The position numbers and the translations under genes were made by a program. Positions 3,646 to 30,300 of a stretch of 32,073 bases of DNA are shown one piece after another. This DNA is from Deltaproteobacteria bacterium. GTDB lineage: Bacteria > Myxococcota > Kuafuiibacteriia > Kuafuiibacteriales > Kuafuiibacteriaceae. The stretch lies in assembly GCA_040218735.1 (NCBI GenBank), contig JAVJQW010000032.1, positions 1-32,073 on the forward strand, written 5' to 3'. Position 1 is the first letter of the stretch, and each line of letters begins with the position of its first letter. The notes under the pieces were generated by a model. It saw only the letters and a program-made list of their open reading frames with translations, was not told the origin of the DNA and ran no database searches.

Positions 3646-4212
3646 TCAGAAGCGCAGCGTGAGCGCCGCGCCCGGGACGGCGTCGCCAGCGCGATCGCGC
3701 AGGAGCGTCGGCACGACCGCGACGTCGAGCGCCTCGTTGTGCCGGCGCACCGCGGCGCGCGCGTCGAGTAAGTCGGTGACGAGCAGATAGATCGCGACCC
3801 CGAGGAGGCCGACGCCCGCGACGGCAATCGTGATGACCAACGGATCGTCCGCGTGACCCTCGAGGATCCCGTAGAGCCCTCCGAACGTGAGGAACGCGCC
3901 GAGCCCCCCCGCCGCGGTTCGCCCCAGGGACCTCAGCCCGGCGCGTTCGACTTCGCCGGCGTAGAAGTGGCCGAACGATGGACCGAACCCGAGGCCGAAC
4001 CCGATCGCGAAGAAGCCGGCGATGTTGGCGGCGCCGTCGTACTTGTAGCTGAGGCCGCCCCCGATCAGCACGGGGAGGAACGTCGCGACGACGGGCAACA
4101 CAATTCCGGCCGTCTCTGATCTCGGCTGCGGGGGCACCTCGTCGACCGCGTCTGCCGCGACCACCGGCGCCGCCGCGATGAGCAGCGACGCGACGACCAG
4201 CCCACTCGCCAT
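3646..4212 (-). CDS. Exported/membrane protein of unknown function, paralog B (GPSFGHFYAGE motif, C-terminal ...LTLRF)
   Basis: Signal-peptide-like N-terminus, Gly-rich hydrophobic helices, and clear similarity to 4275-4820. Confidence 0.8.
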   Translation of the reverse strand: MASGLVVASLLIAAAPVVAADAVDEVPPQPRSETAGIVLPVVATFLPVLIGGGLSYKYDGAANIAGFFAIGFGLGFGPSFGHFYAGEVERAGLRSLGRTAAGGLGAFLTFGGLYGILEGHADDPLVITIAVAGVGLLGVAIYLLVTDLLDARAAVRRHNEALDVAVVPTLLRDRAGDAVPGAALTLRF

Positions 4213-4274
4213 GACCGGGTAGAGTCTCTCGCGACGCGGTCGCAAGTGGCAACGGAACCACCCGCGCGGCGGGC

Positions 4275-4820
4275 TCAGAAACGCACGGCGAGCGCGAGCG
4301 CGGGCCCGACCGTCCCGTCGCGCGCGACCACGGCGGAGGGCGTGAGCACCGCCGTGACCTCGGCCGTCTCGTTGTGGCGACGCACCGCCGCGCGCGCGTC
4401 GAAGAGGTCACGCCCGAGGAGGTAGGCGGCGCTCGCCCACAGGACGAGCCCGCAGATCGCCGCAGGGATCGCGGTGTCCGGGTTGTCGGCGAGCGTGTCG
4501 GCGAACACCAAGAACGCGCCCATCCCGAGCAGCGACGTGCGGAGCACCGAAGTCAGCCCCGCGAACAACGACTCCCCCGCGTAGAAGTGACCGATCGACG
4601 GTCCGACCCCGAGCCCGAACGCGAGCAGGAAGAGGCCGGCGAGCTCGCCGTCGTCGTCGTACCGGTAGACGAGCCCGCCTCCGAAGAGGACCGGCAGAAA
4701 CGTCGCGACGACGGGCAGCGCGATCCCCAAGGCTTCGGACTTCGGCTCGGGAGGGTCGTCCTCCACGACCGAGCTCGGCCCGACCGCGATCAGGAGCGCG
4801 AGCGCAGGAACGGCCGACAT
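4275..4820 (-). CDS. Exported/membrane protein of unknown function, paralog A (GPSIGHFYAGE motif, C-terminal ...LAVRF)
   Basis: Starts 11 nt after the gltG stop. Shares LPVVATFLPVL.GGGL.Y.YD, GHFYAGE and DARAAVRRHNE with the downstream paralog. Confidence 0.8.
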   Translation of the reverse strand: MSAVPALALLIAVGPSSVVEDDPPEPKSEALGIALPVVATFLPVLFGGGLVYRYDDDGELAGLFLLAFGLGVGPSIGHFYAGESLFAGLTSVLRTSLLGMGAFLVFADTLADNPDTAIPAAICGLVLWASAAYLLGRDLFDARAAVRRHNETAEVTAVLTPSAVVARDGTVGPALALAVRF

Positions 4821-4831
4821 GGACCCGATGA

Positions 4832-7063
4832 TCAGCCGGCGGTCTTGAAGATGAACGGATACTTCACGATGACGATGCCGCCGCCCTTCGGCTTCGGGAA
4901 CCGCCAGGTGCGGATCTTCGCCGTGATGCAGCGCTCGACCTCGGCGTTGTTCAGCGTCGACTGCGTGACCTTCGAGCTCTGCACCGAGCCGGTGCCGGAG
5001 ATCGTGAACTGCGTGGCGACCTTGCCGAACAGCCCCGGCGAGCGCACCAGCTCCTTCTCGTAGCAGTACCGAATCTGCGCGATGTGCTGCTTGATGACGC
5101 GACGGATGATCTCCTTGTCGAGCGACCCCATGATGACCGGGGTGCCGGGGGAGATGTTGATGTCGCGGTCGGACTTCTTGCCCATGCGGCCGGCGCCTTC
5201 GCCGTAACCCGAGCCGCCCGAGCCGCCACCGCGCCCGCGCGTGCCGAGCGCGCCGAGGCCGACCGAGTTCATCGACAGGCCGCCGCCGCCGGGGCCCGTG
5301 CCGCGCACGCCGAGGCCACCGAGGCCCGTGGCGTCGCCGATCTCGGCGCCGGTCACGCCGCCGAGGGCGCCCTTGAGCTCACCGCCGAGGCCGCCGCTGC
5401 CGAACAGGTAGCTGCGGCCGACGTTGCCCTTGCCACCGAACAGCTTGTTGAGCGCGCTCTTCGCGATCTCCTTGTCGTTCGGATCGCCCTTCACCGCCAT
5501 GCGGCCCTGCTTCTTGCCCTTGTAGTCCTTGCGGCCGGCCTTGCCTTCCTTGCCGCGTGCCTTCGCGCCGGGCTCGCCCGCCTTGAGCTTCGACAGCAGG
5601 CTGCTCTGGTCGGCCTGCTGCTTCTGCTCGGGCGTCAACCTGAATTGCGCGAAGCGATTCGGGTTCTTGAAGATGTCCTCGGTGAGCTCCGCCTGCGTCA
5701 CCGGCGTCGCGATGAAGCTGACGATCGCCATGACGTGCATGAAGAACGCGAGCACGAGGATGTTCATCCACGTGTAGTTCACCTCCGCCATGAACGGCAC
5801 CGGCGCGAGCCGGTTGTTCCGGATGTAGCGGATCTGAAGGATGAGCCCCTCGTGCGCGAGGTACAGCGTCTCCGCGGGGCGGAGGCCGTACCGAAGCCCG
5901 CCGGGCATGTCACCCGGCTCCGCGCCGAACTGCGACAGCTGCTCGAGCGGAATGACCGTCCCGTCCGCGCGCTCGACCTGACCGATGAACCCGGCCGGGA
6001 TGTTGATCGTGTAGTTCGTGGCGTCCGGCCCGAGCGACTCGGCGAGCGCGTACGTCTTCGCCGGCAGGCCCTTCGACGGCATCTCGATGTCGCAGCGCTG
6101 CACCTTCTGGAGCGGACCCCAACCGGAGATGCGACGCTCGTCGCCGATCGTGACGTTCGCCTTGTCGGTCACGGCGATCGAATCGATCACCGAGTTGCCC
6201 CACAGCAGCTTCACCTCGAGCGAGCGCTCGGTGTCCGGTGTGCCCTCGCTTGCGAGGTTGCTCGGCACCGTGCCCCACGCATCGCGCGGCGCCATCGACT
6301 GCGGATAGCCGGGTGCAGCCCCCGGGTAGCCGGCGGGCGCGTAGCCCGGCGCGGGCGCATAACCGGGCGGAGGCGCGTAGCCCTGCGGCGGATAGCCGGG
6401 CGCGGCCCCCGGATAGCCGGCGGGCGCGTAACCCGGCGGCGGTGCCTCGGCGGCGTAGGAAGGCTGCGGTGCAGCGGCGTACGGTGCTTCGGAGCTCGAC
6501 GGCGCGAGGTCACCCGTCTGAGGCGCCATCGCCTGCGCCGGCATCGCGGGCGCCGCCATCGGCGCGGGCGCGGCGGGGACGACGGACGCCGCCACCGCAG
6601 ACGGCGAGGCCGCCGGCGCCGACACCGGCGAAGCCGCCGCGGTGATCGCGGTCGGCGCGGAGTTGGCCATCTCCTGCGCGCTCGGTTGCCACAGCTGCTC
6701 GGGCGTGGCGTCGGGCGTGCTCGCCGCAGCCGCCACCGGCGCCGCCACGGCCGCCGCGGGCTGCGCGAACGTGACGACGATGCGGTAGTCGCCGACCTTC
6801 AGCGCGTCACCGTCCGAGAGCTTCTCCTTCGAGATCTTCTTGTCGTTGAGGTACGTGCCCTCGGTCGATCCCATGTCGATGATCGAGTACTCCCGGCCAT
6901 CGCTGGTCGCTTCGATCACGGCGTGGATGCGCGACACCTTCGAATCGTCGAGCTTGAGGTGGGCCGACGCGAGCCGCCCGATCTTCACGATGTCGCGATC
7001 GAAGGTCTCGTCGCTGACGACTTCGTCGCCTTTGTGCACGGTGAGCTTCAGCGGAATGGGCAT
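4832..7063 (-). CDS. gltG: Adventurous gliding motility protein GltG/PglI (FHA domain, TM helix, TonB-C/AgmX-PglI C-terminal domain)
   Basis: N-terminal FHA (IGR..S..H..IDMGSTEGTYLN), Pro/Ala linker, TM helix (ILVLAFFMHV), Gly-rich stretch, and C-terminal GSLDKEIIRRVI..IRYCYE..WRFPKPKGGGIVIVKYPFIF. Syntenic with gltF/E/D. Confidence 0.92.
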   Translation of the reverse strand: MPIPLKLTVHKGDEVVSDETFDRDIVKIGRLASAHLKLDDSKVSRIHAVIEATSDGREYSIIDMGSTEGTYLNDKKISKEKLSDGDALKVGDYRIVVTFAQPAAAVAAPVAAAASTPDATPEQLWQPSAQEMANSAPTAITAAASPVSAPAASPSAVAASVVPAAPAPMAAPAMPAQAMAPQTGDLAPSSSEAPYAAAPQPSYAAEAPPPGYAPAGYPGAAPGYPPQGYAPPPGYAPAPGYAPAGYPGAAPGYPQSMAPRDAWGTVPSNLASEGTPDTERSLEVKLLWGNSVIDSIAVTDKANVTIGDERRISGWGPLQKVQRCDIEMPSKGLPAKTYALAESLGPDATNYTINIPAGFIGQVERADGTVIPLEQLSQFGAEPGDMPGGLRYGLRPAETLYLAHEGLILQIRYIRNNRLAPVPFMAEVNYTWMNILVLAFFMHVMAIVSFIATPVTQAELTEDIFKNPNRFAQFRLTPEQKQQADQSSLLSKLKAGEPGAKARGKEGKAGRKDYKGKKQGRMAVKGDPNDKEIAKSALNKLFGGKGNVGRSYLFGSGGLGGELKGALGGVTGAEIGDATGLGGLGVRGTGPGGGGLSMNSVGLGALGTRGRGGGSGGSGYGEGAGRMGKKSDRDINISPGTPVIMGSLDKEIIRRVIKQHIAQIRYCYEKELVRSPGLFGKVATQFTISGTGSVQSSKVTQSTLNNAEVERCITAKIRTWRFPKPKGGGIVIVKYPFIFKTAG
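6302..6490 (-). repeat. Intragenic Pro-Gly-Tyr-Ala repeat (GYAPAGYPGAAPGYP x2 plus variants) in the GltG linker
   Basis: Near-duplicated ~48-bp segments at ~6303 and ~6390, also visible in the translation. Confidence 0.8.
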
Positions 7064-7081
7064 GTCGTCTCCTCGGGCTCC

Positions 7082-7342
7082 TCAGATCTTCGACACCGAC
7101 CCCAAGACCCGGTCGCGGAAGTTGTCGCGGATCTTGATCAGGTTCGAGTGTCGGACGCGCTTGCGGCTCTCGACGTAGGCGCCGTCGGGCTTGGTGAGGT
7201 CACCGTCGATCGTGTCGTCGCCGAAGCTCACGACCGTCTTCTTCTTGTAGATGATCCCGGCCTCTGACTCCTCCTGAGCCCACGCCGACACCGGCGCGGC
7301 CAGAAGCGTCAGGACCACCATGAAGTTCAAGACTCTCATCAT
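7082..7342 (-). CDS. gltF: Adventurous gliding motility protein GltF/CglF
   Basis: ~86 aa, signal peptide (..VSAWAQ), YKKKTVVSFGDDTIDGDLTKPDG..SNLIKIRDNF. Lies between gltE and gltG. Start could be 7339, 7342 or 7345. Confidence 0.9.
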   Translation of the reverse strand: MMRVLNFMVVLTLLAAPVSAWAQEESEAGIIYKKKTVVSFGDDTIDGDLTKPDGAYVESRKRVRHSNLIKIRDNFRDRVLGSVSKI

Positions 7343-7381
7343 CACTCTCGAGGCCTCTCGACCCGGGTTCGCGTCACCGTG

Positions 7382-7410
7382 TTCGACAGCACACGCGCCC
7401 CCAGGGTTCC
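7382..7410 (-). promoter_or_regulatory. Candidate ECF-sigma-type internal promoter upstream of gltF
   Basis: Minus strand reads GGAACC-N17-GTCGAA, ~40 nt upstream of the gltF start, in the only sizeable gap of the operon. Confidence 0.35.
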
Positions 7411-7516
7411 GAGGTTGCATCAGTTACCGAAGTTTTTCGGTATTTCGTCCCAGATTTCCAGCGGACAGATGTGCGACCGGGTCCCGCCGAGTCGGACCGA
7501 CGGTCCCGTCGCCCCC

Positions 7517-8911
7517 TCATTCGAAGTCGTCCGGTTCGGGGATCTCCGGGGTCTCGGGCTCGTCCTTCTTCTTCGGACGCGACCGACGCCGCGTCTTCTT
7601 CGGCTTGTCCGCCTCCGGCTCGGGCTCGTCCTTCGGCTCCGAAGCGCTCGGATCCGGCGGTTCCTCGGCGGCGCGCTTCGCCTCCTCGGCCGCGAGGCGA
7701 TCCGCCTCCGCCTGCTTCTTGGCCTCTTCCTCGGCGATCTTCGCGTCGATCTCCGCCTGGCGCTCGGCCTCTTCGAGCATACGCTTTTCTTCGATCGCCA
7801 ACGCCTCGAGCTTCTCGATCTCCTCGAGCATCCCAAACACCTTGTCGTTGTTGCCGTCCGACAGCTGCAGGTAGCGCTTTAGCTCCTCCTTCGCCTCCGG
7901 GAGCTTGTTCATGTTCCGCAGGTACAGGACGCCGAGGTTGTAGTGCGCCGCCGGCGCGCCGTCCGCGCCCGCCGCGTCGATCGCCTGCTTGTACGCCGCC
8001 TCCGCCGCGTCGAACTGCCCGCTCCCCTTGTGCGCCACGCCGAGGTTCACGAACGCCGCGACCGCCTTCGGGTTCTGCTGCGTGACCGCCGCGTAGTTGT
8101 CGATGGCCTTCTTGAAGTCCTTGTAGCCCATCGAGATCTGCGCCACGTGGAAGCGCGCTTCGAGCAGCGAGCTGTCCTTCGCAATCGCGCGCTCGAACGA
8201 AGCGATCGCCGTCGCCAGCTCCTTCTCGCGCAACGCGACCAACCCCAGCACGTAGTGCAGGCACGACGCCTCCGGATCGATCTTCAGCCCCTGCGCCGCC
8301 ACGAGCCGCGCCCGCAGGTGGTCCTTCGACTTCACCGACGCCTCCGCCAACACGCAGTACGCGCCGATGTGTTTCGGCTGGTACCCGAGCGCGTCCCGCG
8401 CGAGCGCCGTCGCCTCCTGCACCTCGTCCCGCTGGAGGTGATGCGTCGCCAACGCGACGCGCGCGTCGGCCGCCCCCGGATCGCGATCCACCAGCTCCTG
8501 CAGCAGCCCGACCGCCTCGTTCGACTCCCCACGCTTCGCCGCGAGCGCGGCCAGGTTCTCCTGCGCCTCGCGGAGCTTGTTGTTCGTCGACAACGCCTTG
8601 CGATACGCGTCTGCCGCCTGGTCGTCGCGCCCGAGGTTTTCGTACGCGACGCCGAGGTTGTACCAAGCGAGCCCGTACCCCGGGTGCTTCGTCGTCACGC
8701 CCTCCATGCGGCTCGCGACCTCACCCCAGTCCGGGTTGTCGCCATTCTGTTTGATCGCGTCCGCCTCGGCCTGGAAGTCCTTCGCCGCTTCGTTGGCCTT
8801 CACGACCTGCACCGACTTCTTGCCGGGCGGCGCGGGGTCGAGCTTGGTCGCGGTCTTCTTCGCGCACGCGAGCGCGGCGAAGCACAGCGCACCGATCATC
8901 AAGCGCTTCAC
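7517..8911 (-). CDS. gltE: TPR lipoprotein GltE/AglT
   Basis: GTG start overlaps the gltD stop (GTGA) with GGAGG RBS. Lipobox-like ALAC, many TPRs (AWYNLG, AFVNLG, AHYNLG), charged C-terminal tail. Confidence 0.85.
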   Translation of the reverse strand: MKRLMIGALCFAALACAKKTATKLDPAPPGKKSVQVVKANEAAKDFQAEADAIKQNGDNPDWGEVASRMEGVTTKHPGYGLAWYNLGVAYENLGRDDQAADAYRKALSTNNKLREAQENLAALAAKRGESNEAVGLLQELVDRDPGAADARVALATHHLQRDEVQEATALARDALGYQPKHIGAYCVLAEASVKSKDHLRARLVAAQGLKIDPEASCLHYVLGLVALREKELATAIASFERAIAKDSSLLEARFHVAQISMGYKDFKKAIDNYAAVTQQNPKAVAAFVNLGVAHKGSGQFDAAEAAYKQAIDAAGADGAPAAHYNLGVLYLRNMNKLPEAKEELKRYLQLSDGNNDKVFGMLEEIEKLEALAIEEKRMLEEAERQAEIDAKIAEEEAKKQAEADRLAAEEAKRAAEEPPDPSASEPKDEPEPEADKPKKTRRRSRPKKKDEPETPEIPEPDDFE

Positions 8912-11900
8912 TTCGCACCTCCCGCGTTGGCCTGCGCCTGTCGCGCGACGGAGTAACCGTCGTACTCGAGGATCAGGTTGTTCGACTCGAGCGAGCGCAG
9001 CTTCGTCGGCTCGCTGTAGCTCATCGAACGCTCCACGATCTGCGGGTACGCGTCGGGCGCGAGCTTCTCGAGCGCCTTCACACACCGCGTGCTGTACGGC
9101 GTGAACGTGTTGAGCTCGTTCGATTTCTGCACGCACGTCTTGTACGCCTGGTACGCGGCGTCACGCGCCGGGCCCGCCTTCGTCTCGATCTCGCCCTTCA
9201 CGATCAGGCACTGGTCCTCGGTCAGCCCGCGCGGGCACGGCACCGCAGTGAGCGTCTCGACGAACTCGTCCCAGGCCTCCGCGATCCGGAACAACGACGC
9301 GATCGAAGACTCCGCCTGCTGATACTCCGTCACGATCTTCGTGTACGACTTTACGAGTCGCTCGCGCGCCTGCGCCTTGTCCTGCAGCGACCGCTGGAAC
9401 GGCTTCGCGTTCCTGAGGCTCGGCGTCTTGATCCGCAGCCGGTCGTACTTGCTGAACTCGTCGTCGACGATCTCGAACGCTACCTGCGACGCGTAACGCT
9501 TCGCCGCCGGCGGTACGCGTTTGCCGCGCCGACGGTGCGCCTTGTACGTCCCGAGGATGTCGCGCTTGATCTTCTCCGCGCGGCTGCGCTGACGGAGGTG
9601 GTCGTTGCGGATCTCGGCTTCACGCCACAGCGCATCCCAGAAACGCTCCGTGCGCCCGAACTCCTTCGCGTAGTCGCGGTACCGATCCGCCGCCTGGCGA
9701 TGGCGACCGGCGCGGTCGAGGTCCTGGGCGATCGACCAGTAGATCTCCGCCGCCTCCTTTTCGCCGTCCTTCGCGCGCCCGTACTTCTTGAGGTACTCCT
9801 CGCGCAGCTTCGTCGCCGTACGCACCTCACCGACGCCCGCGTAGAACACCGCCGCGTTGAACAGCGCATCGCGCGCCCGCGCGTCGTCCTCGTGGCTGCG
9901 CGCGAACGACAGGAACGCCTTTGCCGCGCTCGCGAACTCCGTGCGCTCCTCGTGTGTCTTCGCCACGTAGAACGCGACGTCCGCGCCGAGCGGCGACTTC
10001 GGGAACTCGTCGAGCAGCGTCTTGCGCAGCGCGTCCGCCTTCTCCTTCTCGCCGGTCTTGTCGTAGGCGACCGACGCGTTGAACAACGCCTTGTCCGCGT
10101 TCTCGCTCTTCGGGAACTCGCGGTAGAAGTCCTCGTACGCCGCCGCGACGAGCCGCAGATCACCGCGCTCCTTCTTCACGCGCTCCTCGAGGATCTGCAC
10201 GAGCTTGAACTTCGCGTACTCCGAGAACCGCGACAGGTCGTCGCGGAGCTTGTCGCGCCCGTCGATCAGATCCGCGATCCCCAAGTACGCAGCCGACGCC
10301 TTGTACAGCTCCTCCCAGTTCTCTTCGAGGTTGTGGATGTCGACGACGAGGTTCGCCGCGTACTCCGCCTGCTCCGACTTCGGGTGCGCGCGCACGAGCT
10401 CGTCGAAGCGCTTCAGCGCCTCCACGTTGTGCGCGTAGTCGTAGTAGATCTTCGCGACCTTGAACCGCACCGCGACGAGTTTGTCCGCCTTGTCCGCCGG
10501 CACGTACTGCGCGTAGCGCTCACACGCTTCGATCAACCGCATCTTCTGCGGGTGGATGTCGACCTTCTTGTCCGTCGACTTCGGCTTGCGCACGCCGAGA
10601 TCCTTCAGGTGCTCCTCGACCGCGAGGATATTGTCGTTCGCGGCTTCGATCAGGTACTTGCCGTCCTTCGGCTTCGCGAGGACCGTCTCCTTGTACGCCT
10701 TCGCCGCGTCGTCGAACTTCTCGAGCTTGTAGTAGAGGTCCGCGAGCTGGAACCGCATCTCGTAGGCGTAGTTCGTCTTCGGGAAGAGGCCGAGGTAGTC
10801 CTCGTACATCGTCTTCGCGAACTCGTACGTCTTGTTCGTTCGCGTCTTCTTCGCCTCGCGGTTCCACAGCTGCGCGAGCTTGCGGATCGTGTTCTCCGCG
10901 AGCTGCGCCGCCTCCTTCACGTCGTCCCGCGCCTGCTCGTCCGCCTGGCTCGTCCCCGTCCGCTGCGCAACGCTCGCCTTGACCGTCTCGTAGACCTTCA
11001 CGAGCTCACGCGTCTCGCGGATGACCTTCTTCTTGTTCCCGCCACGCGCGACGAGGTCGACGATGCGCCCCTGGAAGAACGGGTTGCGCGTGTTGTTGGG
11101 GTCGAGCTGCATCAGCTGCTTGTAGATGATCGCCGCCTCCGCGAAGTAACCCTCGTCGTGCCACAGCCCGGCGAGCTGCTCGAGCAGCTTCCAACAGCTA
11201 CGGTCGGTGCAGTCCTTCACGCCGAGCAGATCCGCCAGCTCGAACTTCGCGCGCTTCGGATCGCCGACGTGGGAGTACGCCCGCACCCAATCCTTCTGCG
11301 CCTCGCGCCCGAGCGCGATCTTGTTCTCACCGCTCAGCTGGTCCGCGAGCTGCGAGTACAGCACCGTCGCGCGGAACTTCTTCAGCGCGGCGCGCCAGTC
11401 CGCGAGGTTGTAGTAACACCACGCCTGCTTGTAGAGCGCGAAGCCGTACACCCGCGAGCGCTTGTCCTTCGCCGCCTTCTCGTAGCTCTTCAGCGCGCGA
11501 TTGACGTCGCCCTCGTTGAAGTAGAACTCGCCGAACGCGATCCACGCTTCCGCGACCAACGGGCTGTCCGCGAAGTTCACGATCAGATCGCGGTACATCG
11601 CGATCGAGTCCTCGTAGCGCCCCTCGCTCCAGTAGCTCTGCCCGAGCGCGAAGAGCACCTCGGGCGTGCGCTCGTACTTCGGGTACTTGTCGCGAATCTC
11701 CCGGTACACGTCGAGCGCGTTGTTCAGCCACACCTTCGACTCGGCGAGGTTGCGCTTCTTCTCGGACATCGCGTCCGCCTTTTCGCCCTCGTTGTTCGAG
11801 CGCAGCGCGCGGTCCTCGGCCTCCTGTCCGCGGAAGAAGTAGAAACGCGACTTCTCGTAGTAGAGCTCGGCGAGCCGGAACTTGAGGTCCGGCGTGTCGC

Positions 11901-12162
11901 GCTCCTCGGTCGTCATCTCGAGCAGCCGCTTGATCCCGGTGATCTGCTCTTCGCGCTTCTCCGCGACCTTGATCTCGATCTTCTTACGGAACTGCTCGTA
12001 CTTCAGCGTCGGGCCGCCGGCGGTCATCTTCGTGACCTTGGCCTTCTTGCCGCGACGGCGTTTCTTCTTGGCTTCTACGTCGACGGAGACGGACGCCACC
12101 AACCCCACCACGACCATTACGCCCAGCGCCCGGCCCATTCTCTTCTTCGTCTCGGGTCTCAA
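8908..12162 (-). CDS. gltD: Large periplasmic TPR protein GltD/AgmU
   Basis: TTG start with GGAGG RBS, signal peptide, 1084 aa of TPRs (FRLAELYYE, FALYKQAWCYYN), C-terminal paired cysteines. Position upstream of gltE-F-G. Confidence 0.88.
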   Translation of the reverse strand: MRPETKKRMGRALGVMVVVGLVASVSVDVEAKKKRRRGKKAKVTKMTAGGPTLKYEQFRKKIEIKVAEKREEQITGIKRLLEMTTEERDTPDLKFRLAELYYEKSRFYFFRGQEAEDRALRSNNEGEKADAMSEKKRNLAESKVWLNNALDVYREIRDKYPKYERTPEVLFALGQSYWSEGRYEDSIAMYRDLIVNFADSPLVAEAWIAFGEFYFNEGDVNRALKSYEKAAKDKRSRVYGFALYKQAWCYYNLADWRAALKKFRATVLYSQLADQLSGENKIALGREAQKDWVRAYSHVGDPKRAKFELADLLGVKDCTDRSCWKLLEQLAGLWHDEGYFAEAAIIYKQLMQLDPNNTRNPFFQGRIVDLVARGGNKKKVIRETRELVKVYETVKASVAQRTGTSQADEQARDDVKEAAQLAENTIRKLAQLWNREAKKTRTNKTYEFAKTMYEDYLGLFPKTNYAYEMRFQLADLYYKLEKFDDAAKAYKETVLAKPKDGKYLIEAANDNILAVEEHLKDLGVRKPKSTDKKVDIHPQKMRLIEACERYAQYVPADKADKLVAVRFKVAKIYYDYAHNVEALKRFDELVRAHPKSEQAEYAANLVVDIHNLEENWEELYKASAAYLGIADLIDGRDKLRDDLSRFSEYAKFKLVQILEERVKKERGDLRLVAAAYEDFYREFPKSENADKALFNASVAYDKTGEKEKADALRKTLLDEFPKSPLGADVAFYVAKTHEERTEFASAAKAFLSFARSHEDDARARDALFNAAVFYAGVGEVRTATKLREEYLKKYGRAKDGEKEAAEIYWSIAQDLDRAGRHRQAADRYRDYAKEFGRTERFWDALWREAEIRNDHLRQRSRAEKIKRDILGTYKAHRRRGKRVPPAAKRYASQVAFEIVDDEFSKYDRLRIKTPSLRNAKPFQRSLQDKAQARERLVKSYTKIVTEYQQAESSIASLFRIAEAWDEFVETLTAVPCPRGLTEDQCLIVKGEIETKAGPARDAAYQAYKTCVQKSNELNTFTPYSTRCVKALEKLAPDAYPQIVERSMSYSEPTKLRSLESNNLILEYDGYSVARQAQANAGGAK

Positions 12163-12175
12163 GAGAACCTCCGAT

Positions 12176-14038
12176 TCAGCGGCACGAGTGGGCCAGGGTC
12201 AGCTCGTACGTCCCCAGCTCGTCCCGCCAATACTCACCGTCGAACGGCCACACGAGCTTCTCGTCGTCCGTCCACTCGATGAATTCCTTTTCGATGTCCT
12301 TCGGTCGCGACTGCACGTCTCTCAGCTGCGACTCGATCCGCTCCTGCTCGGAGCGCGACGTCTCGATGTCGATGCGGATCGCCTGTTGGATCAGCGTCTT
12401 CACGTGGTCGCGCTCGCGCTCGAGCTGGTTGCGCACCGCGCGCCCCGCTTCGCGCGCCAGCTGCTGCTTCGCGTCGGTCAGCACCTCGCGCAGTCGCTCC
12501 GCGATCGCGGCGCTGCCGAAGCCACCGCCGTAGGACGCGAGCGACGCCTCCTCCTCGCTGACCTCCTTGTACGCCTCGTCGAGCCGCTGAAGCTCCGGAT
12601 CCGCGAGCGCGATGCCGAGCACCTGTCCGAGGATCTCGGCCTTCTCGGTGTTCGTCTCCGCGAGGTCGCGACCGCGCAGGTTCTCGAGCGCCTCGTAGTA
12701 CTTGTCGGACGTCTGCTCGCGCGCCGTCATCGCTTCGAGCTCTTCGAGGACCGGCTCGTAGCGGCGGAGGAACCGCGTGAGGATGTTCTTCGCCTCCGGG
12801 TAGCGGCAGTTCTCGTAGTAGATCACGGCCTTCAGGATGTGGCTCTCCGGGAAGTACTCGTCCTTGAAGAACGGCGAGTGCAGCGTCAGCAGGTTGCCGA
12901 GCGCCTTCTCGTAGACGCCGAGCCGGAACTCCGCCCAGCTCGCCTCGTAGAGCGCATCGAGCCACGCGTACGAATCGCGGTCGACCTTGTCGTAGTAGAA
13001 GATCGAGAACGACGGCTGCTGCGCGCCGAAGTGCGTACGCGCGAGCTGGAAGAACGCCGCCTCGCGCAGCGTCTCGTTCGGGTGCTCGGCGTCCGGGTGG
13101 GTCAGCCGCACCACGGTCTTGAACGCGTCGAGCGCCTCGTTCTCCTTCTCGTTCTTGAAGAGCACGAGGCCCTCCAGGAACTTCGCGCGCGCGCCGAACT
13201 TCGACGTCTCGTTCACGCGCAGGACGTAGCGCTCGGAGGCCTCGGTGTGCTCCTTCGCGGTGAGCTCGACGTCGCCCGTCGCCTTCTTCTTCTTGCGCGA
13301 CTTCTTCCGCTTCTTCTTCTTGGGCTTCGGCTTCTCGACGGGGTCGCCGAAGAGGTCCTCGTCGATCGTGAAGCCGCCGCCTTCCTTCTTCTTGATGTCG
13401 GGATCGTCGGCGGGCGGCGGGGGCGCTTCGAACGGGTCCTCGCCGAACAGGTCGCCCTTGAGCGACTTGCCGCCGGTCACCGTGTCCTCGACGCGCGTCT
13501 CGCCGAGGCGCCCGACGGCGGCGCCGCGCTCGATCGCGAGCGCCTGGACGTAGTGGTAGCGCGCGAGGCGGAAGAAGAACTCGTCGCGGTACCCGTCCGG
13601 GAACTCACCGGCCGCGTACTTCGCGACGACGTCGTTCACGCGACGATCGTCCTCGAGGTTGCGGCTGATGAAGAGGCACCACTCGAGCGAGCTCTTGTAG
13701 TAGCGGCTCTTCGGCCCGGCCTGCAGGAGCGTGGAGAAGAAGTGCAGCGAGGAGTGATACGCGCCGAGGCGGTACAGCGCCTTGCCGAGGTAGTACGTGG
13801 CCTCCTCGGTGTTCTTCTTCTCGTCCTGCACGTAGTCGAACAGCGCGACCGCGGCGGCGTCGAACGCGCCGCTCTCGAGCTGACGTTTCGCGGCGTCGAG
13901 GCGTTCGCGCACCGGATCCTTCTGCGCTTCGGCGACCTGTCCGAGCGAGAGGCCCTTCTTGTCCTGCGCGATCGCGGGAGCGGAGAGCACCAAGGCTTGG
14001 ACGCTCACCGATGCGATCAGTATGGCGTACGTTCGCAC
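12176..14038 (-). CDS. gltC: Periplasmic TPR protein GltC
   Basis: GTG start with GGAGG RBS and signal peptide. KALGNLLTLHSPFF..YFPES.ILKAVIYYENCRY and C-terminal WPFDGEYWRDELGTY, as in GltC/NfsC-like proteins. Confidence 0.9.
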   Translation of the reverse strand: MRTYAILIASVSVQALVLSAPAIAQDKKGLSLGQVAEAQKDPVRERLDAAKRQLESGAFDAAAVALFDYVQDEKKNTEEATYYLGKALYRLGAYHSSLHFFSTLLQAGPKSRYYKSSLEWCLFISRNLEDDRRVNDVVAKYAAGEFPDGYRDEFFFRLARYHYVQALAIERGAAVGRLGETRVEDTVTGGKSLKGDLFGEDPFEAPPPPADDPDIKKKEGGGFTIDEDLFGDPVEKPKPKKKKRKKSRKKKKATGDVELTAKEHTEASERYVLRVNETSKFGARAKFLEGLVLFKNEKENEALDAFKTVVRLTHPDAEHPNETLREAAFFQLARTHFGAQQPSFSIFYYDKVDRDSYAWLDALYEASWAEFRLGVYEKALGNLLTLHSPFFKDEYFPESHILKAVIYYENCRYPEAKNILTRFLRRYEPVLEELEAMTAREQTSDKYYEALENLRGRDLAETNTEKAEILGQVLGIALADPELQRLDEAYKEVSEEEASLASYGGGFGSAAIAERLREVLTDAKQQLAREAGRAVRNQLERERDHVKTLIQQAIRIDIETSRSEQERIESQLRDVQSRPKDIEKEFIEWTDDEKLVWPFDGEYWRDELGTYELTLAHSCR

Positions 14039-14046
14039 GGCGCCTC

Positions 14047-14805
14047 CTACTGGAACTCGTATTCGAACGACATCGGGAAGAAGCCGCTGACCGAGAACCC
14101 GAGCACGAGGAGGTTCTGCAGGTCGGCTTCGTTGCCGCGGTTGTCCATGAAGATGTAGTCGCGGATCTCGACGCGGGCGGTGAGCCAGTCGTTGATGAAG
14201 TAGCGCTGACCGATGCCGAAGTTGAGCGACGGGTTGAGGCCGGCGTCCGTCCCGAACGCGCCACCGCCAGCGGTGACGTACGTGTCGAAGTGCAGGATGC
14301 CTTCGCCGAACAGGGAGATCTTTCCGTAGAACGGAGCCCAGAGGGCGTCGATGTCCGCGTGGTACTTGAACTCCGGCGGGTCCTCGATCAGCGACTCCGT
14401 CTCGATACGCACGAAGCGAATCGCGGACTGCTCGATCGAGGCGACCACGAAGCCACCGCGCAGCTCGACGGCGAACGAATCCGCCACGTGGTACGAGCCT
14501 GCGACGCCGACGATCAGGTGCTGGAAGAACGGGTCGTTCAGATCGAGCGCGAACTGCGGGAAGATCTCGATGCGCTCCTTCTTGATGAAGTCCTTCCGCT
14601 GGACCGACTTGATGCGGTCGGACAGCTTCTGTTTGCCGTCCTCACGCTCTTCGACGGCCTTGTCCGTCTCCTCCGCCTCGGCGGAGGTCTCGGTGTCGAC
14701 CGGGGGAGTTTCGTCACCCTCTTGCGCGAAAACGACGCTCGAGGACGAGGCCCCGAGCGCGAACGCCAGGGCGAGTGGGACGCAGATGGGTTTGAATCCG
14801 GTCAT
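14047..14805 (-). CDS. Outer-membrane beta-barrel protein, GltA/GltB (NfsA/B)-like
   Basis: Signal peptide, DRIKSVQRK..K..R.E..P....LNDPF, WAPFYGK, HFDTYV.AGGG, G.GQRYF, C-terminal SGFFP. I cannot distinguish GltA from GltB by eye. Confidence 0.85.
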   Translation of the reverse strand: MTGFKPICVPLALAFALGASSSSVVFAQEGDETPPVDTETSAEAEETDKAVEEREDGKQKLSDRIKSVQRKDFIKKERIEIFPQFALDLNDPFFQHLIVGVAGSYHVADSFAVELRGGFVVASIEQSAIRFVRIETESLIEDPPEFKYHADIDALWAPFYGKISLFGEGILHFDTYVTAGGGAFGTDAGLNPSLNFGIGQRYFINDWLTARVEIRDYIFMDNRGNEADLQNLLVLGFSVSGFFPMSFEYEFQ

Positions 14806-14835
14806 TTCCTATCGATTCCGCAGTGATAGGGGCGG

Positions 14836-14865
14836 ATGTTAGGATCATGTCGTGATCCGGCGCAA
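14836..14865 (-). promoter_or_regulatory. Candidate sigma70-type promoter of the glt operon with a palindromic operator in the spacer
   Basis: Minus strand TTGCGC-N18-TAACAT. The spacer contains GGATCA-N5-TGATCC (14842-14858). Confidence 0.45.
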
Positions 14866-14923
14866 ACGGCTGTCAGGGCGCTTTCGAATGCCAGCAGAGC
14901 GTGTTAATCACCCGGACGGCTCG

Positions 14924-15304
14924 ATGGCACGCCCCTCCTACCGACTCCTGGGTATGTTTTGCGGTCTGATGCTCGCCGTAGGGGCGTGTACGGAAGACGA
15001 CGCTGGGGTGTGCTGCAAGGTGATTCCGGGGGGCGACGAGACGCTCATCCCGGAGCCGGAGCAGAACGACCAGGGTGACTTCCGCGACGTCGTGGCCCAG
15101 CACCCGGCCTTCGACTGCTCCGGTCTGGTGTGTGTCTCGACGCAGGGTTCCCCGGCCTATTGCACGCACCCGTGCCGCGACGCTGGGGATTGCCCCGAGG
15201 GCTTCGCGTGCGAGCCGATCCTGCAGTCCGAGCCGCCGCCCGGCAGCCAGCTCACGCCCGACGACAAGTTCTGCGTCCGAGCCCTCGACACCTGCCGCGA
15301 GTGA
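14924..15304 (+). CDS. cglC: Cys-rich gliding lipoprotein CglC/GltK-like
   Basis: Lipobox VGAC, then D.G..C, DCSGLVCV, YCTHPC....DCP.GF.C, KFCV. Divergent from and adjacent to the beta-barrel/gltC genes. Alternative ATG at 14888. Confidence 0.7.
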   Translation: MARPSYRLLGMFCGLMLAVGACTEDDAGVCCKVIPGGDETLIPEPEQNDQGDFRDVVAQHPAFDCSGLVCVSTQGSPAYCTHPCRDAGDCPEGFACEPILQSEPPPGSQLTPDDKFCVRALDTCRE

Positions 15305-15306
15305 CC

Positions 15307-15599
15307 GGTCCTACGCCGTTATCGGCCGGCAAGCCGGCCTGCGGCGTCTTCGCTCGCCTTCGGCTCGCTGCGCGCTCCGCCCTTCGGGCTCCGCTTGCCG
15401 GGTCCTACGCCGTTATCGGCCGGCAAGCCGGCGCGGCGTCTTCGCTCGCCTTCGGCTCGCTGCGCGCTCCGCCCTTCGGGCTCCGCTTGCCGGGTCCTAC
15501 GCCGTTATCGGCCGGCAAGCCGGCCTGCGGCGTCTTCGCTCGCCTTCGGCTCGCTGCGCGCTCCGCCCTTCGGGCTCCGCTTGCCGGGTCCTACGCCGT
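15307..15599. repeat. Tandem array of REP-like palindromic units (94, 92, 94 bp plus a partial 4th)
   Basis: Units start at 15307, 15401, 15493 and 15587 (ggtcctacgccgt...). They are identical except for a 2-nt deletion in unit 2. GTAG tag on the minus strand; several internal hairpins. Confidence 0.95.
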
Positions 15600-15775
15600 C
15601 CTCGCTGCGCCCAACCCCGGAACTCCTCCGCTCTGCGGAATGTCCAGAGGGACTGGGGCCGTTGGCCCTTCTATCGGGGGATCGGGTACGATGAAATTTC
15701 GCCGACCGATCAAAATCAACGACCGATCGCTGCCCGAAGATCCTTTTCGACTGGTCGTCCGTTGGGAGTAGCACG

Positions 15776-17194
15776 ATGCGTAAGACCCTCGCCCTGTTCG
15801 TAGCCGCCTTCTCGATGCTCATTGCAGCGTTGATCTTCGGGCTGCCCGGTGGACCCGACCCGTCGGGCCCGATCGAAGCCCCCGTTCAGACCCCGCCGAT
15901 CGCTCCGCCGAGCGCCCACGCGCAGGCCACCGCCCACCTCGGTCAGATCGTCACCCTCGATGCCGCGCTCCACGGCGACTACCTGTTCGCCCAGCAGCGC
16001 GAGCGCGTCTCCCTGCTGATGGACCTCAACGCCATCCCGGTCGAGCGCGGGGGCCGCGCGCCGATCAGCGTCGCCGTCGTGATCGATCGCTCCGGCTCGA
16101 TGGCCGGCGACAAGATCCGTCAGGTGCGCCGCGCGGCGAAGACGCTCGTCGAGCGCCTCGCCGACTCCGATCAGATCGCGCTCGTCACGTACGCGAGCGA
16201 CTACGCTGTCGACCTCCCGCTCACGCCGATCGGCGGCCAGCGCGCGCGCATCACCCGCATCATCGACGACATCCTCGACGGCGGCGGCACGAACCTCGCC
16301 GGCGGCATGCAGGCCGGCCTCGACGCGCTGGCGAAGGCGCAGGGCGCGCCGGTGCGTCGCCTGATCCTCCTGTCGGACGGCAACGCGAACCAGGGCATCA
16401 CGGACCCGACCTCCATCGCCGAAATCGCGGCGAGCGCGCGTCAGAAGGGCATCACGATCTCCACGCTCGGCGTCGGCCTCGACTTCAACGAGGACCTGAT
16501 GACGCTCGTCGCGCAGAGCGGCGCGGGCGGCTACTACTACGCACGTAACGCCACCGCCGTCGCCGCCGCGTTCGAGAAGGAGCTCACCGGGCTCGTCGCC
16601 CTCGCGGCGCGCACCGTCGAAGTCGGCCTCGAGCTGAAGCCCGGCGTCACCGTGGCCGAGGTGTACGGGTACCGCACCGAGATGCGCGGCGGACGCCTCG
16701 TGATCCCGGTCGGCGACATGGCCAGCCAGGAGAAGCGCCGCATCATGGTGCAGCTCGACGTGAACCCGACCGAAGCCGGCCCCGTCGGCATCGGCGACGT
16801 CGTCCTCTCCTACCGCAACGCCGCCAACCAGGACGTGCGCGAGCACCGCGCCGCGCTGTCGATGGTCGCGACGGCCTCGCACGACGAGGTCGCCTCGGGC
16901 TTCCGCAGCCACGTCGCCGAGGCGTTCGAGCAGGCGCAGGCCGCGCAGGCGCGTGAGGCCGCTGCGACGCAGCTCATCGCCGGAGACCGCGACGCCGCGA
17001 TCGCGCGGGTGCGTGCGTCGGTGAAGCGTCTCTCGGAGCGCAACGCGAAGCTCAAGAGCGACAAGCTCCAGCAGCAGATCGACGAGATCAACGATGTGCT
17101 CGTCGACTTCGAAGACGTGGACCTGGCGTCCGACGCCGCGAAGGATCTCGTGAAGAGTGAGAAGCTGCGCGCCCGCCAGGTGTTCGTCTACTGA
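15776..17194 (+). CDS. Membrane-anchored/secreted von Willebrand factor A domain protein (YfbK-like)
   Basis: N-terminal hydrophobic helix, MIDAS DRSGSM, GGTNL, LLSDGNAN, Ig-like segment and helical tail. GGGAG RBS. Confidence 0.9.
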   Translation: MRKTLALFVAAFSMLIAALIFGLPGGPDPSGPIEAPVQTPPIAPPSAHAQATAHLGQIVTLDAALHGDYLFAQQRERVSLLMDLNAIPVERGGRAPISVAVVIDRSGSMAGDKIRQVRRAAKTLVERLADSDQIALVTYASDYAVDLPLTPIGGQRARITRIIDDILDGGGTNLAGGMQAGLDALAKAQGAPVRRLILLSDGNANQGITDPTSIAEIAASARQKGITISTLGVGLDFNEDLMTLVAQSGAGGYYYARNATAVAAAFEKELTGLVALAARTVEVGLELKPGVTVAEVYGYRTEMRGGRLVIPVGDMASQEKRRIMVQLDVNPTEAGPVGIGDVVLSYRNAANQDVREHRAALSMVATASHDEVASGFRSHVAEAFEQAQAAQAREAAATQLIAGDRDAAIARVRASVKRLSERNAKLKSDKLQQQIDEINDVLVDFEDVDLASDAAKDLVKSEKLRARQVFVY

Positions 17195-17226: not shown

Positions 17227-18615
17227 GTGACGAAGACGTCTCCCCCACCCGGCCCGCCCGCGCCTGAAGAAACGAAACCGGTTCGACGCCCTGGCCCACT
17301 CCCGCAGCGCTCGACCGCGCTCGTGAAGCGGCCGCCGGCGGCGCTCGCCGCCTACTCCGACCACGGCAGCCTGCACGGCACGGTGCTGCGCGCGATGGGC
17401 GGCGCGGCCGGCGGGCTCTTGTTGGCGGACCTGATCTCCCGCGCGTTTGCGTTCGGTCTGGCCGACTCCGTCGTGCTCCCGATCGCCGTCGCCGCGGGGG
17501 CGCTCGCGACGGTGGCCTCACGCGGCAAGAAGTGGATCAAGGGTCTGCTCGGCGGCGCGCTCGGCGTCGGTGGCGGCGCGCTCTTCGCGGTCACGGCGCC
17601 GTACTGGTCGCCCTTCGCGGCTCTACTGTATGGGGCGTCGATGGTGCCGATCCTGGCGCCGGAGGAGTCGTGGAAGCGAAAGACGGTGACCGGCATCGTC
17701 GCGGGGGCGCTCGCGTCCGCCGGGGTCTACGTCGGGCAGGTCATCCTGTCGTGGGATCTGTTCGGCGGGATGGTGCCCGGCCCGCTCGCCAGCGCGGCGG
17801 CGGGGGCGGCGGCCGGCCTGTTCGTCGGGCTCGCGGGGGCGCCCAAGCACCTCGCGCGGCCCGCGGACCCGGTCGAGGTCGCGTACCTCGAAGCGCTGAT
17901 GATCAAGGATGGGGAGCTGCACGAGATCCTGCAGCGCACGCTGCAGATCCACCGCGCGGTGCGCGAGGACCTGAAGGTGCGCGAGGACGACAAGGCGGTC
18001 GCGCCGCTGCGTCCGCAGGTCGGTGACATGACGATGCGCATCCTCAGCATCGTGAAGTCGTGCCGCCACATCGAGGCCGACCTCGCGGCCGCGCCCGGGT
18101 ACGAGCTCGAGGACCGGATCGCGGACCTCGAGTCGAAGGCCGGCGCGACGGACGACGCGGCGGCCCAGGCGACGTACCGCTCGGCGATCGAGACCCTCGA
18201 CGCGCAGCGACAGGGCATCGCCGCGATCCAGCGGGGTCGCGAGCGGGTCATCGCGCGGCTGCACGCCAACGTCGCCCTCCTCGAGAAGGTCCGCTTCTCG
18301 CTCGTGCACCTCCGCAGCGCCGACGCCCTGCGGCTGGGCGGGGAATCCTCGCCGGTGACCGAGGCGATCGCGGAGCTGTCGGCCGGGATCGACGCGACCT
18401 CGACGGCGGTGGGTGAGGTCTACGGCCACCCGGACGACGCCCCGGCCCTGTTGGGGCCCGTGGCGGAGGACCGCCTGGAGATCGGGCCCGCGGAGCGGCC
18501 CAAGGCGCGACCCGAGCTGGTCGCCCAGCTCGTCCCCGCGCCCGTAGAAGACCTCGAGGACGCCGAGAGCGTGGATACGGTGCCTCCGCGCGCCGCCGAC
18601 GGACGCGACGCGTAA
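17227..18615 (+). CDS. Membrane protein with ~6 Gly/Ala-rich TM helices and a C-terminal helical/coiled-coil domain
   Basis: Strong GC3 coding frame 32 nt after the vWA gene. Hydrophobic N-half, amphipathic helical C-half. Confidence 0.8.
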   Translation: MTKTSPPPGPPAPEETKPVRRPGPLPQRSTALVKRPPAALAAYSDHGSLHGTVLRAMGGAAGGLLLADLISRAFAFGLADSVVLPIAVAAGALATVASRGKKWIKGLLGGALGVGGGALFAVTAPYWSPFAALLYGASMVPILAPEESWKRKTVTGIVAGALASAGVYVGQVILSWDLFGGMVPGPLASAAAGAAAGLFVGLAGAPKHLARPADPVEVAYLEALMIKDGELHEILQRTLQIHRAVREDLKVREDDKAVAPLRPQVGDMTMRILSIVKSCRHIEADLAAAPGYELEDRIADLESKAGATDDAAAQATYRSAIETLDAQRQGIAAIQRGRERVIARLHANVALLEKVRFSLVHLRSADALRLGGESSPVTEAIAELSAGIDATSTAVGEVYGHPDDAPALLGPVAEDRLEIGPAERPKARPELVAQLVPAPVEDLEDAESVDTVPPRAADGRDA

Positions 18616-27332: not shown

Positions 27333-30300
27333 GTGCCCGGCTCACCGCAGGACCTCGAAGACATCCGCCGGGCCCTCGCGCGCATCGCGCGGCTGGCGGG
27401 CGTCGTCGTCCCCACGCGCGAAGGCGCGCTCCTCTTCGAAGGGATCGAGCTCGTCGATCCGCGTTTGATCGTCGACGAAGTGTTCACCTCGGGGCTGCCG
27501 TCGGCCGCAACCGTCCGTGCCGCCTTCCGTTCGCCGAGCAAACGAACACCGATCGAGGCGACCCCTCGCTGGCTCGCCGCCGCGCAACGTGACTTGCACC
27601 GCGTGCGCGCACAACCGCATGTGCTCGACTGGGTGAAGGAGGCGTCGTCGGTGCTCGGCAAGTACCGGCACGTCGACGCCGCGTGGCTCGACCTGCACCA
27701 GGCCCACCTCGATCGCCTCGGCGGCGAGCTCGTCGCGCGCGACGATCCGCCGGGCTTCGACACCGTGCTGCGCCTGATCGGCGCCGTGCACGGCGCGACG
27801 CAGGCCGAGCGGGTCCGCCGCGTCGTGACGCTCAGCGCGCAACACAGCGTCCGCCTACGACGTCGCGCCGAGCGGAGGCTCTCCGCCCTGGTCGCCGCGC
27901 TGCGCTCCCAGGACGCCCCTTCGGACGCCGTCGCTGCCGCCGCGACGGTGCGTAGCGTCGCAGGGCCTTCGCGCCGCGTTCGTCGCCGCTTCGTGCGCGC
28001 CGTCGTCGAGCACGTCCTCGGGGCGGACGCCGGCCACGCGTTCGACGACACCCCCGGGGCGCCGATCGAGGAGCGGGTGCAGACGATCGGGCGCGCGGCC
28101 ATCGCTTCGATCCCATCGACGCGCTCCGAGGCCTACCTCGATAGGCTGCAATCCACGCTCGCCACCTACGCGCTCTCGTTCTCGTGGGACGGCCCCGCGC
28201 GCGCGATCGCGCCGCGCGGGCTGGACGGCCTCGATCGCCGCACCGACGCGGTCCTCACGGCCTTCGCGGGGCACGTTCGGTCGTTCACGGACGTCGTGGA
28301 GCTGCTGCAAGACCGTAAGGTCTGCAAGGACCTCGCGCTCGCCGGCCGACTCAGCGACGTCCTCTCCGTGGCGGAGGTGCGGTCGATCTTCGCGCTCGGG
28401 CTCGCCCACGAGGTCGCACGTCTCCTCCACACCCCCGAGGTCGCCCGGGGGTACGGCCGATGGATGGCGAAGCTCGCGCCCCACTTCGAGCGGATCGGCG
28501 CGAAGCTCTCCGTGTCCGCGCGTCAGTACGAAGAGCTCGCGCGGCGCGCGGCGAAACAGAGCGACCTCGCGTTGCTCGCGCACTGCCTCATCAGCCACCA
28601 CGCGACGCCGTCGCAAGAGACACTTCAGGCCGACCTCGCCAACCTCGACGCCACGCTCGGTCTCTTCCGAGCCGAGGACACGAAGCTGCCCGACATCGTG
28701 GCGAAGCTGCGCGCCTCCCAGACGGGGATCGGACGCCGGCACTACCCGGACTTCGCCGTCTGGCTCGACGACGACGCACACCTCGACCGCTTCCTCACGC
28801 TCGCTCGTCAGGCGGGTCGGACCGAGCTCCTCCCCGCCGCGCTCCGCGAAGACTTCGAGCGGGAGTCACGCACCGCGCGCGAACGGCGGTTCCTCGCTGC
28901 GCTCCAGGAGCCGAGCGAACGCCAACGCGCACGCCTCGCGCACCTCGCGAGCGCTCCGCCGGCGGATCCGCGCCGCACACGCGCGAGGATACGTCGGCGC
29001 ATCGACGGCCTCACCGCCGAGGTCTACCGCACCGCGCTCGACCAGCAGATCCTGGAGCTACTCCATCGCGCGTTCCGAATCCGGCCGGCGAAGCTCGACG
29101 GAGCGTGGCGGGACGCCGTGCGCTTCTACCTCGCCACACATCGCAACCACGAGCTGCTCCGCGCGCTGCTGCATCACGCCACCGCGCACCCCGGCCAACC
29201 GATCGACCGCGAGCGCAGCGAATCACGAGCGTGGATCGAGCGCGCCGCGTCGCGCATCGACGTCGAGGCGTGGCTCGCTCCGCGACGGCGCACCGTCGAC
29301 CTCTCCGGTCGTCCCCACACGATCGCGGTCGAGCACGATCCGCTTCAAGTGCTCCGCATGGGCATCCCCTTCTCGACCTGCCTGTCGATCGAGGGCGGGT
29401 CGAACGCCGCCGCGACGGTCATCAACGCGTTCGACGTCAACAAACAGATCCTCTACCTGCGCAACGCCGACGGCGTCGTCGTCGGGCGGCAGCTCATCGC
29501 GATCTCGGAAGGATTCCAGCTCCTCACCTACCGCGTGTACCTCTCGGATCGGGAGGACACCGATCAAGCCCGCGACGCGTTCGTGGAGCTGTGCCTCGAG
29601 ATCTCCCGCGACACGGGCGCTGCGCTCGCGACCGGCGGCGCCCCCGAGCAGCTCCACGAGGGCTTTTGGTACTGCGACCCGCCCGAGGCGATCGCCCGCA
29701 CGATCTCGGACGACGCCGTCGCAGCGTACTGCGCGTCCCTGGGCCGGCCCGAGCCGGACGGCGAGCGCACCGAGCTCAACCGCGAAGCCGCGGGGTGGCA
29801 GGCGGCACGGGAGGGCGACGCGCTGCGCGCCGCCCAACTCCTCGCGCGCGACCGAGGCGCGGCCTTCACGGAGGTGGCTCGAACGTTGGACGCCGACCGC
29901 GATGCGCTCGGCCAGGCCTGCGCGGCCGACCCGTCGCTCGCGATCGCCTTCGCCTACCACCGCGCGCGCCGCGACGGCCTCGAAGCGGCCTTCGCGTTGA
30001 TCGAGCGCGCGCCAGCCATCGACTGGCGCTTCGCCGACGCACTCCCACCGCTCGGGCTTCGCTTCGAACCCGCCGCGACGATCGCCGACGCCTGGCTCCG
30101 GATCGGTGAACGCGGCCGACGCATCAACCCCATCTTCGACAACCACGGCGTCGAACACTCGACCTTCTACACCGTCGCTCCGCAGCTTCGTGGCGCGCCG
30201 GTCCGAGCGATCCTCGCGCTCGCGGACCGCGCCGACGCGCTGTGGGGGTGGATCGTCGAGGAGAGCGACGGCTACTGCGAGGGCTGCCGCATCAACGCGA

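Follow-up and report, generated by a model that had tools for sequence, protein, structure and literature searches.

A probable gliding-transducer (glt) locus of Candidatus Kuafubacteria with joined gene order and a single GltB-type barrel gene

The window analyzed here is a stretch of 32,073 nucleotides (contig JAVJQW010000032.1, assembly GCA_040218735.1, class Kuafuiibacteriia in GTDB). It carries seven open reading frames (ORFs) that resemble the glt genes, which encode the gliding transducer of the Agl-Glt machinery. All seven are present, and each shows a coding-type bias in GC content at third codon positions (GC3). The gaps along the operon, in the order barrel, gltC, gltD, gltE, gltF and gltG, are 8, 13, -4, 174 and 18 nt. 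Genes, order and gaps agree with a preliminary description of this DNA, which had put the fourth gap at about 175 nt. The glt features are as follows.

14924..15304, plus strand: gltK/cglC-like gene for a Cys-rich outer-membrane (OM) lipoprotein, divergent from the operon (lipobox-like AVGAC, 11 Cys, hhalign, reciprocal hidden Markov models (HMMs))
14047..14805, minus strand: single eight-stranded OmpA-like barrel of GltB type (TIGR04565, AlphaFold2 (AF2) model, tree, B motifs)
12176..14038, minus strand: gltC, periplasmic tetratricopeptide repeat (TPR) connector (NF033756, 513 bits, cut-off 450)
8908..12162, minus strand: gltD (agmU), large periplasmic TPR shaft (TPR domains, identity to Anaeromyxobacter oryzae GltD, synteny)
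7517..8911, minus strand: gltE (aglT), TPR lipoprotein (NF033758 below cut-off, lipobox-like ALAC)
7082..7342, minus strand: gltF (cglF) (NF033764, 104 bits, cut-off 90; translation)
4832..7063, minus strand: gltG (pglI) (NF033760 below cut-off, NF033768 above cut-off, Pfam FHA, hydropathy)

The Agl-Glt core gene set gltC, D, E, F and G is present in this locus. Besides GltC and GltF, the barrel exceeded its NCBIfam cut-off (TIGR04565, 123 bits versus 60). GltD matched TPR models only, as does the GltD of A. oryzae, with which it shares 31% identity over 1100 columns (E 1e-139). GltG has an FHA domain, a Pro/Ala linker, a transmembrane (TM) helix near residue 430 and a TonB-like C-terminal domain. 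The divergent CglC/GltK-like gene of the preliminary description was recovered by profile comparison, where its family alignment (16 rows) matched a CglC alignment (24 rows) with hhalign at 98.4% (E 5.8e-15). Furthermore, the two family HMMs each match only the syntenic ORF of the other, and a Cys pattern is common to both. Judged from the length of the signal peptide, the gene more probably starts at ATG 14924 than at GTG 14852. In the ESM Atlas the protein fell only into unnamed Myxococcota clusters, and a fold search with its predicted model returned one uninformative match (Z 3.2).

No barrel gene other than 14047..14805 was found in the window. An HMM search of the window found no gltH, and scans of 19 and 26 window ORFs gave no match to the GltI/J, MotA/ExbB or ExbD families. 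The earlier statements that the window has only one GltA/B-type barrel and lacks gltH/I/J and the aglRQS motor genes were thus borne out.

Relatives were collected by scanning GTDB genomes with a GltC alignment, and the best 80 of 335 were kept as the locus sample; the 255 lower-scoring relatives, outside this sample, would include Nfs, Polyangia and paralogues. A concatenated GltC/D/E/G phylogeny, which the preliminary description had proposed, was calculated for 49 loci with no Nfs or Bdellovibrio rows and placed the window inside a 16-row clade (starred support, 100). This clade includes LLY-WYZ-16_1 (locus L013) and a contig of assembly WYAZ01 (L009). LLY-WYZ-16_1 is named in PMC10576062 (Li et al., 2023) as Candidatus Kuafuhalomonas phototrophica, of the Candidatus Kuafubacteriaceae in class c__WYAZ01, a class which that paper describes as deep-branching and as including phototrophic members. 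By its Glt gene trees the window groups with Candidatus Kuafubacteria (c__WYAZ01), in line with the earlier suggestion of a poorly studied Myxococcota lineage.

All 16 clade loci (L002-L017) have a divergent gltK, one barrel and adjoining gltC and gltD. A permissive six-frame search with a GltA-type profile found only the one barrel in each and no A-type remnant, and an A-type barrel is absent at the locus in 17/17 cases when the window is counted with them. At the locus, gltH is absent from all 14 clade members that can be read past gltG, and 13 of these have an RNase Z gene after gltG. Only one barrel was also seen in the uncultured L020/L045 lineage, while two barrels are present in the other 31 of the 49 joined, gltK-bearing loci. 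Like the window, L020 and L045 have gltK, one B-type barrel and gltC-D-E; unlike it, L020 retains gltH as well as a long TPR gene following gltG, and L045 has a gene for a lipoprotein-like VWA protein between gltK and the barrel. We conclude that the one-barrel, gltH-less locus is a conserved trait at the level of the class, and the only unusual trait of this locus. We did not find it described; a literature search, with most subscription journals outside it, returned no account of a glt locus with one barrel from this class.

The AF2 model of the barrel shows eight long strands, and its top Foldseek matches were OmpA and OmpW. Barrels of Myxococcales were labeled A or B following the gene order K, B, A, C of M. 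xanthus. Labeling all barrels by gene position was rejected, as tree and motifs showed a swapped order in L018-L030. In a careful tree of 36 barrels, the Myxococcales GltA together with the first barrel of L018-L030 stand apart from the rest (100/97, starred), and the single barrels fall on the B side of this A/B split. Motifs chosen from the alignment after inspecting it point the same way. A B-type N-terminal motif is found in 15/17 single barrels, 39/43 GltB and 0/42 GltA, and an A-type motif in 0/17, 0/43 and 35/42, respectively. Profile scores preferred B in 14 of the 17 single barrels with Myxococcales profiles and in all 17 with profiles from L018-L030. By tree and motifs the window barrel is therefore of GltB type, and GltA is the gene missing at the locus. 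For annotation, the short motifs tell GltA from GltB where position does not, the order being A-B in L018-L030 and B-A in Myxococcales. In L018-L030 and in L041, the two barrels stand in A-then-B order, the reverse of Myxococcales glt, and the GltK-like protein is longer. Two database proteins (P0266, P0267) hold a GltB and a GltA barrel in one chain; their garbled junctions look like frameshift artefacts.

The preliminary description had seen in this locus a hybrid of nfs-like contiguity with a gliding-specific GltK, in which the M. xanthus cluster G2 was fused to G1. This view did not hold. Homologues of G1 and G2 are reported as grouped in four Anaeromyxobacter genomes (PMC3169522, Luciano et al., 2011), and in our sample gltC abuts gltD in 52 of 76 assessable loci and not in 24, with 4 more too short to assess. 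A divergent gltK is seen in 49 of these joined loci, and the other 3 are truncated. On a 77-row GltC tree, with 4 rows unscored and long-branch warnings in other parts, the split state occupies one side of one branch (starred support, 97), formed by Myxococcaceae and kin inside Myxococcales. Since one change accounts for it, the G1/G2 split of M. xanthus would most simply be the derived state, and the supposed fusion has its polarity reversed. The joined order is already published and common, the ordinary unsplit state. The earlier caveat that this order with a single barrel might be common among described myxobacteria was half right, as joined loci with GltK are widespread and already in print, but a single barrel is uncommon among them. 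Three two-barrel-gltC loci (L044, L067, L068) had no adjoining gltK detected.

A close published counterpart in layout is Anaeromyxobacter glt (Adeh_3318-3326; A. oryzae Red232, L065 in our sample), with a divergent gltK, barrels followed by gltC-D-E-F-G in one run and a distant aglRQS. Table S3 of PMC3169522 gives Adeh_3326 to Adeh_3318 as gltK, B, A, C, D, E, F, G and H and aglRQS as Adeh_4308-4310; it tags GltA homologues of about 240-295 aa as 'MXAN_2541', which we took as GltA by size and by Fig. S1. Unlike the window, Anaeromyxobacter has two barrels (B then A), gltH right after gltG and gltI/J a few genes on. The window proteins C, D, E, F and G are 31-51% identical to those of A. oryzae. 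With M. xanthus Agl-Glt (G1, MXAN_4870-62; G2, MXAN_2538-41; M1) the window shares the K, B, C, D, E, F and G proteins and the divergence of K from the barrel, as seen in Corallococcus (L073). M. xanthus differs in the G1/G2 split and in having, and requiring, GltA and GltH. A distant aglRQS is nothing special, because the motor genes lie outside the glt locus in M. xanthus and Anaeromyxobacter too, according to PMC3169522. In the seven-gene core complex of Gammaproteobacteria and Geobacter, as given there, aglRQS is inside the cluster; the window does not share this trait, since it has no MotA/ExbB or ExbD match. A tblastn search of plasmids with GltD gave no match.

Taking together the gene identities, their order, the class-wide conservation and the B-type barrel, we consider it likely that the window holds the orthologous gliding-transducer locus of Candidatus Kuafubacteria/Kuafuiibacteriia, in joined order and without gltA and gltH in the locus. 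The identity as a gliding transducer is supported because GltC and GltF pass the cut-offs of gliding equivalog models, and because GltC, along its C-terminal ~350-380 residues, has 41-43% identity to the Corallococcus and Anaeromyxobacter proteins, against 19% between M. xanthus GltC and NfsC (PMC4488436). It is further supported because GltK is present, whereas nfs as described in PMC3858216 is without it, and because the gltK-VWA neighborhood is common to the Corallococcus G2 locus. A motor, an adhesin and motility itself would follow by analogy. According to a 2026 preprint (10.64898/2026.07.10.737566), key A-motility homologues are broadly present in Kuafuiibacteriia, and the peer-review file of PMC10576062 states that all phototrophic metagenome-assembled genomes of Li et al. 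have AglR and/or MotA.

The mechanism we propose is transferred from M. xanthus. In the AlphaFold modelling of Attia et al. (2025; PMC11761067), the TM/FHA region of GltG sits on AglR and its periplasmic arm around GltD, GltF lies between GltG and GltC, GltC receives the N-terminal strand of GltB, and GltK sits on the outer face of GltA-GltB, where it holds CglB. Every modelled link from GltG to GltB and GltK is encoded at the window locus. Retention of the B type fits this model, because it is the GltB N-terminal strand that enters GltC. By analogy, a separately encoded AglRQS proton motor would bind the TM/FHA region of GltG, whose periplasmic arm would wrap GltD-GltE. GltF would bridge GltG/GltD to GltC, and GltC would dock the N-terminal strand of the GltB-type barrel. 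GltK would cap the outer face of the barrel and present a VWA adhesin, CglB-like and encoded elsewhere, so that motor force passing through this chain could move the cell over a surface.

Several observations weigh against this reading. GltG had its best match in NF033760 and GltE in NF033758, but both stayed below the cut-off (581 bits versus 650; 160 bits, E 7.6e-47, versus 225), and the NCBIfam CglC model, matched by GltK of Corallococcus and Anaeromyxobacter, does not hit the GltK-like gene. The Myxococcales A profile gives three of the 17 single barrels the higher score, and BLAST of the window barrel to the two Corallococcus barrels tied at 113 and 112 bits, which does not separate A from B. 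The trees are unrooted, because they hold no Nfs, Polyangia or Bdellovibrio sequences. None of aglRQS, gltI/J and cglB is in the window, the only stretch of this genome scanned, and this class, in which gliding is predicted from genes, has no known cultured member. Moreover, M. xanthus GltA and GltB are each reported to be unstable without the other (10.1101/2020.07.22.216333; PMC11761067), and gltH mutants barely move. The window locus alone would therefore not suffice in M. xanthus. If this mutual stabilisation applies, either gltA lies elsewhere in the genome or the platform has changed.

For the empty GltA slot, relocation and true loss stand near even. Relocation, to which we give a little less than an even chance, would mean a canonical machine whose gltA and gltH (with gltI/J, cglB and aglRQS) moved elsewhere in the genome, so that only gene order differs. 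In Sorangium, the barrel genes are displaced from gltC (sce2906/2907 versus sce2914; PMC3169522 Table S3). An A-type barrel profile was searched, and 132 full-length sequences among the best 150 of 2742 matches were placed in a tree. Here, a 20-row clade of orphan barrels lies outside the B radiation; about half carry the GltA-type N-terminal motif, and 15/20 score best on the Kuafubacteria barrel profile. This clade could hold a relocated GltA. However, it is far more diverse (19 clusters at 50%, median identity 39%) than are the B barrels of Kuafubacteria (1-2 clusters, median 56-60%) and looks too diverse for the class alone, a comparison biased by representatives that are less than 50% identical by construction. 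The segment PxYGK...HFD is invariant across 111 orthologues, as though a partner still exists; it probably corresponds to the hairpin through which, on the periplasmic side, the published model joins GltA to GltB. A search with the nearest GltH (from L020) returned 25 matches, none recognisable as Kuafubacteria, and was insensitive, missing many known GltH. Among the 120 of 129 matches listed in a search with the window barrel, 112 had the B motif and none the A motif; this search could not reveal a relocated GltA, because all listed matches are at least 48% identical to the window barrel.

True simplification is possible, though we regard it as rather doubtful. Here GltA and GltH would be lost, and the GltB-type barrel alone would serve as OM platform, as a hairpin homodimer or a monomer on GltC. 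The uniform one-barrel, gltH-less clade loci (16/16 and 14/14) without A-type remnants argue for it, but a gene missing from a 20-kb locus may still lie elsewhere in the genome. Loss is parsimonious, since Table S3 of PMC3169522 assigns a pair of barrels to each of nfs, Haliangium, Sorangium and Bdellovibrio Bd0828-0838. In the best careful tree (36 barrels), the single barrels branch from within the B types (87/87), but this node is unstarred, and in two quick trees the B groups of two-barrel loci come together with the single barrels left outside (87 and, starred, 96). A homodimer prediction for the barrel (residues 56-252 twice, 111-row alignment), run without controls, gave a score of 0.00 (mark 0.42) and is evidence neither way.

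A never-duplicated platform, in which the single barrel predates the GltA/GltB duplication, is less likely than either relocation or loss, and we hold it to be improbable. One-barrel (18 rows) and two-barrel (29 rows) loci are separated by a single change on the concatenated tree (starred support, 100), and the one-barrel side contains two deep lineages. The class is described as deep-branching (PMC10576062). The approximately unbiased (AU) test did not reject single barrels outside both A and B (p-AU 0.148), so that the ancestral, unduplicated barrel of the preliminary description stands to this extent; it is, however, less parsimonious than loss. Single-barrel Glt-like paralogue clusters, all gltB-assigned, are given in PMC3169522 (MXAN_1327-1331, the M. 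xanthus cluster G5, and Bd0413-20, Bd1474-81 and Bd2369-77). They resemble the window in one barrel adjoining gltC but differ in gene order, list no gltK or gltE and, in Bdellovibrio, include motor genes. Against ancestry, this reading would call for separate origins or transfers of the A/B pair in Bdellovibrio, Haliangium, Sorangium and nfs, independent duplication in Myxococcales is nearly rejected (AU p 0.055), and Luciano et al. trace the two genes gltA and gltB to the ancestor of Myxococcales and Bdellovibrionales (PMC3169522). On parsimony, loss or relocation in Kuafubacteria is thus preferred.

A non-motility surface transporter like Nfs, for spore-coat or polysaccharide handling, is very unlikely: the contiguity and the lack of gltI/J in the window resemble nfsA-H (MXAN_3371-3378; PMC3858216), and Glt-like paralogues have non-motility roles, but nfs has two barrels, nfsH and no GltK where the window has one barrel, no H and GltK, GltC and GltF meet the gliding-model cut-offs, the neighborhood is of G2 type and contiguity also occurs in bona fide Anaeromyxobacter glt. 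The different function considered in the preliminary description found no positive evidence.

To our knowledge, all that is known of the Agl-Glt OM platform comes from genetics and AlphaFold models. Kuafuiibacteriia might build a focal-adhesion platform for gliding from one GltB-type barrel, GltK and GltC, in genomes that have neither GltA nor GltH. If so, it would be a natural minimal OM module that bypasses the GltA-GltB dependence of M. xanthus, in its strongest form a pre-duplication state. A genome-wide one-barrel state would offer a simpler object for reconstitution and structure work and help to date the GltA/GltB duplication.

Beyond gltK, two conserved neighbors are co-directional with it.

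15776..17194, plus strand: VWA-domain gene 3' of gltK (Pfam VWA, synteny)
17323..18615, plus strand: gene for a membrane/coiled-coil protein of unknown family, after the VWA gene (synteny)

A VWA gene beside gltK is also found in the Corallococcus G2 locus. The window VWA protein has no CglB-named NCBIfam match and is not CglB by any test run. The membrane/coiled-coil protein had no Pfam or NCBIfam match, and its Atlas clusters come from Myxococcota only. The pair follows gltK in Kuafubacteria, the L020/L045 lineage and several Myxococcales (L002-L005, L007, L009, L010, L014, L015, L017, L020, L045, L058, L064, L066, L071, L073 and L080), and may represent overlooked accessory genes or mere old synteny. 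A literature search on MXAN_2537, which may be the M. xanthus tag for such a neighbor, gave no paper. In L045, the gene between gltK and the single barrel (3934-5616, plus strand) encodes a 560-aa protein with 30 Cys, a DxSxS MIDAS motif (metal ion-dependent adhesion site) and a lipobox-like start; it has no NCBIfam match, and a CglB-like adhesin encoded within the glt locus is a possible reading.

Rfam gave no match in the window, and a promoter/terminator scan stayed at chance level. An ARAGORN call at 30301-30396 was rejected, having an undefined anticodon and lying inside a 1399-aa ORF (27333-31532, plus strand), which has coding-type bias and no Pfam or NCBIfam match. Between gltK and the VWA gene (15302-15604) are three tandem copies of a ~92-nt intergenic repeat resembling repetitive extragenic palindromes (REP-like). 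Directly 3' of gltG, two tandem paralogous small hydrophobic proteins, about 52% identical, are encoded on the minus strand (4275-4820 and 3646-4245); this pair has no family match, is absent from all 80 loci and occupies the usual gltH position.

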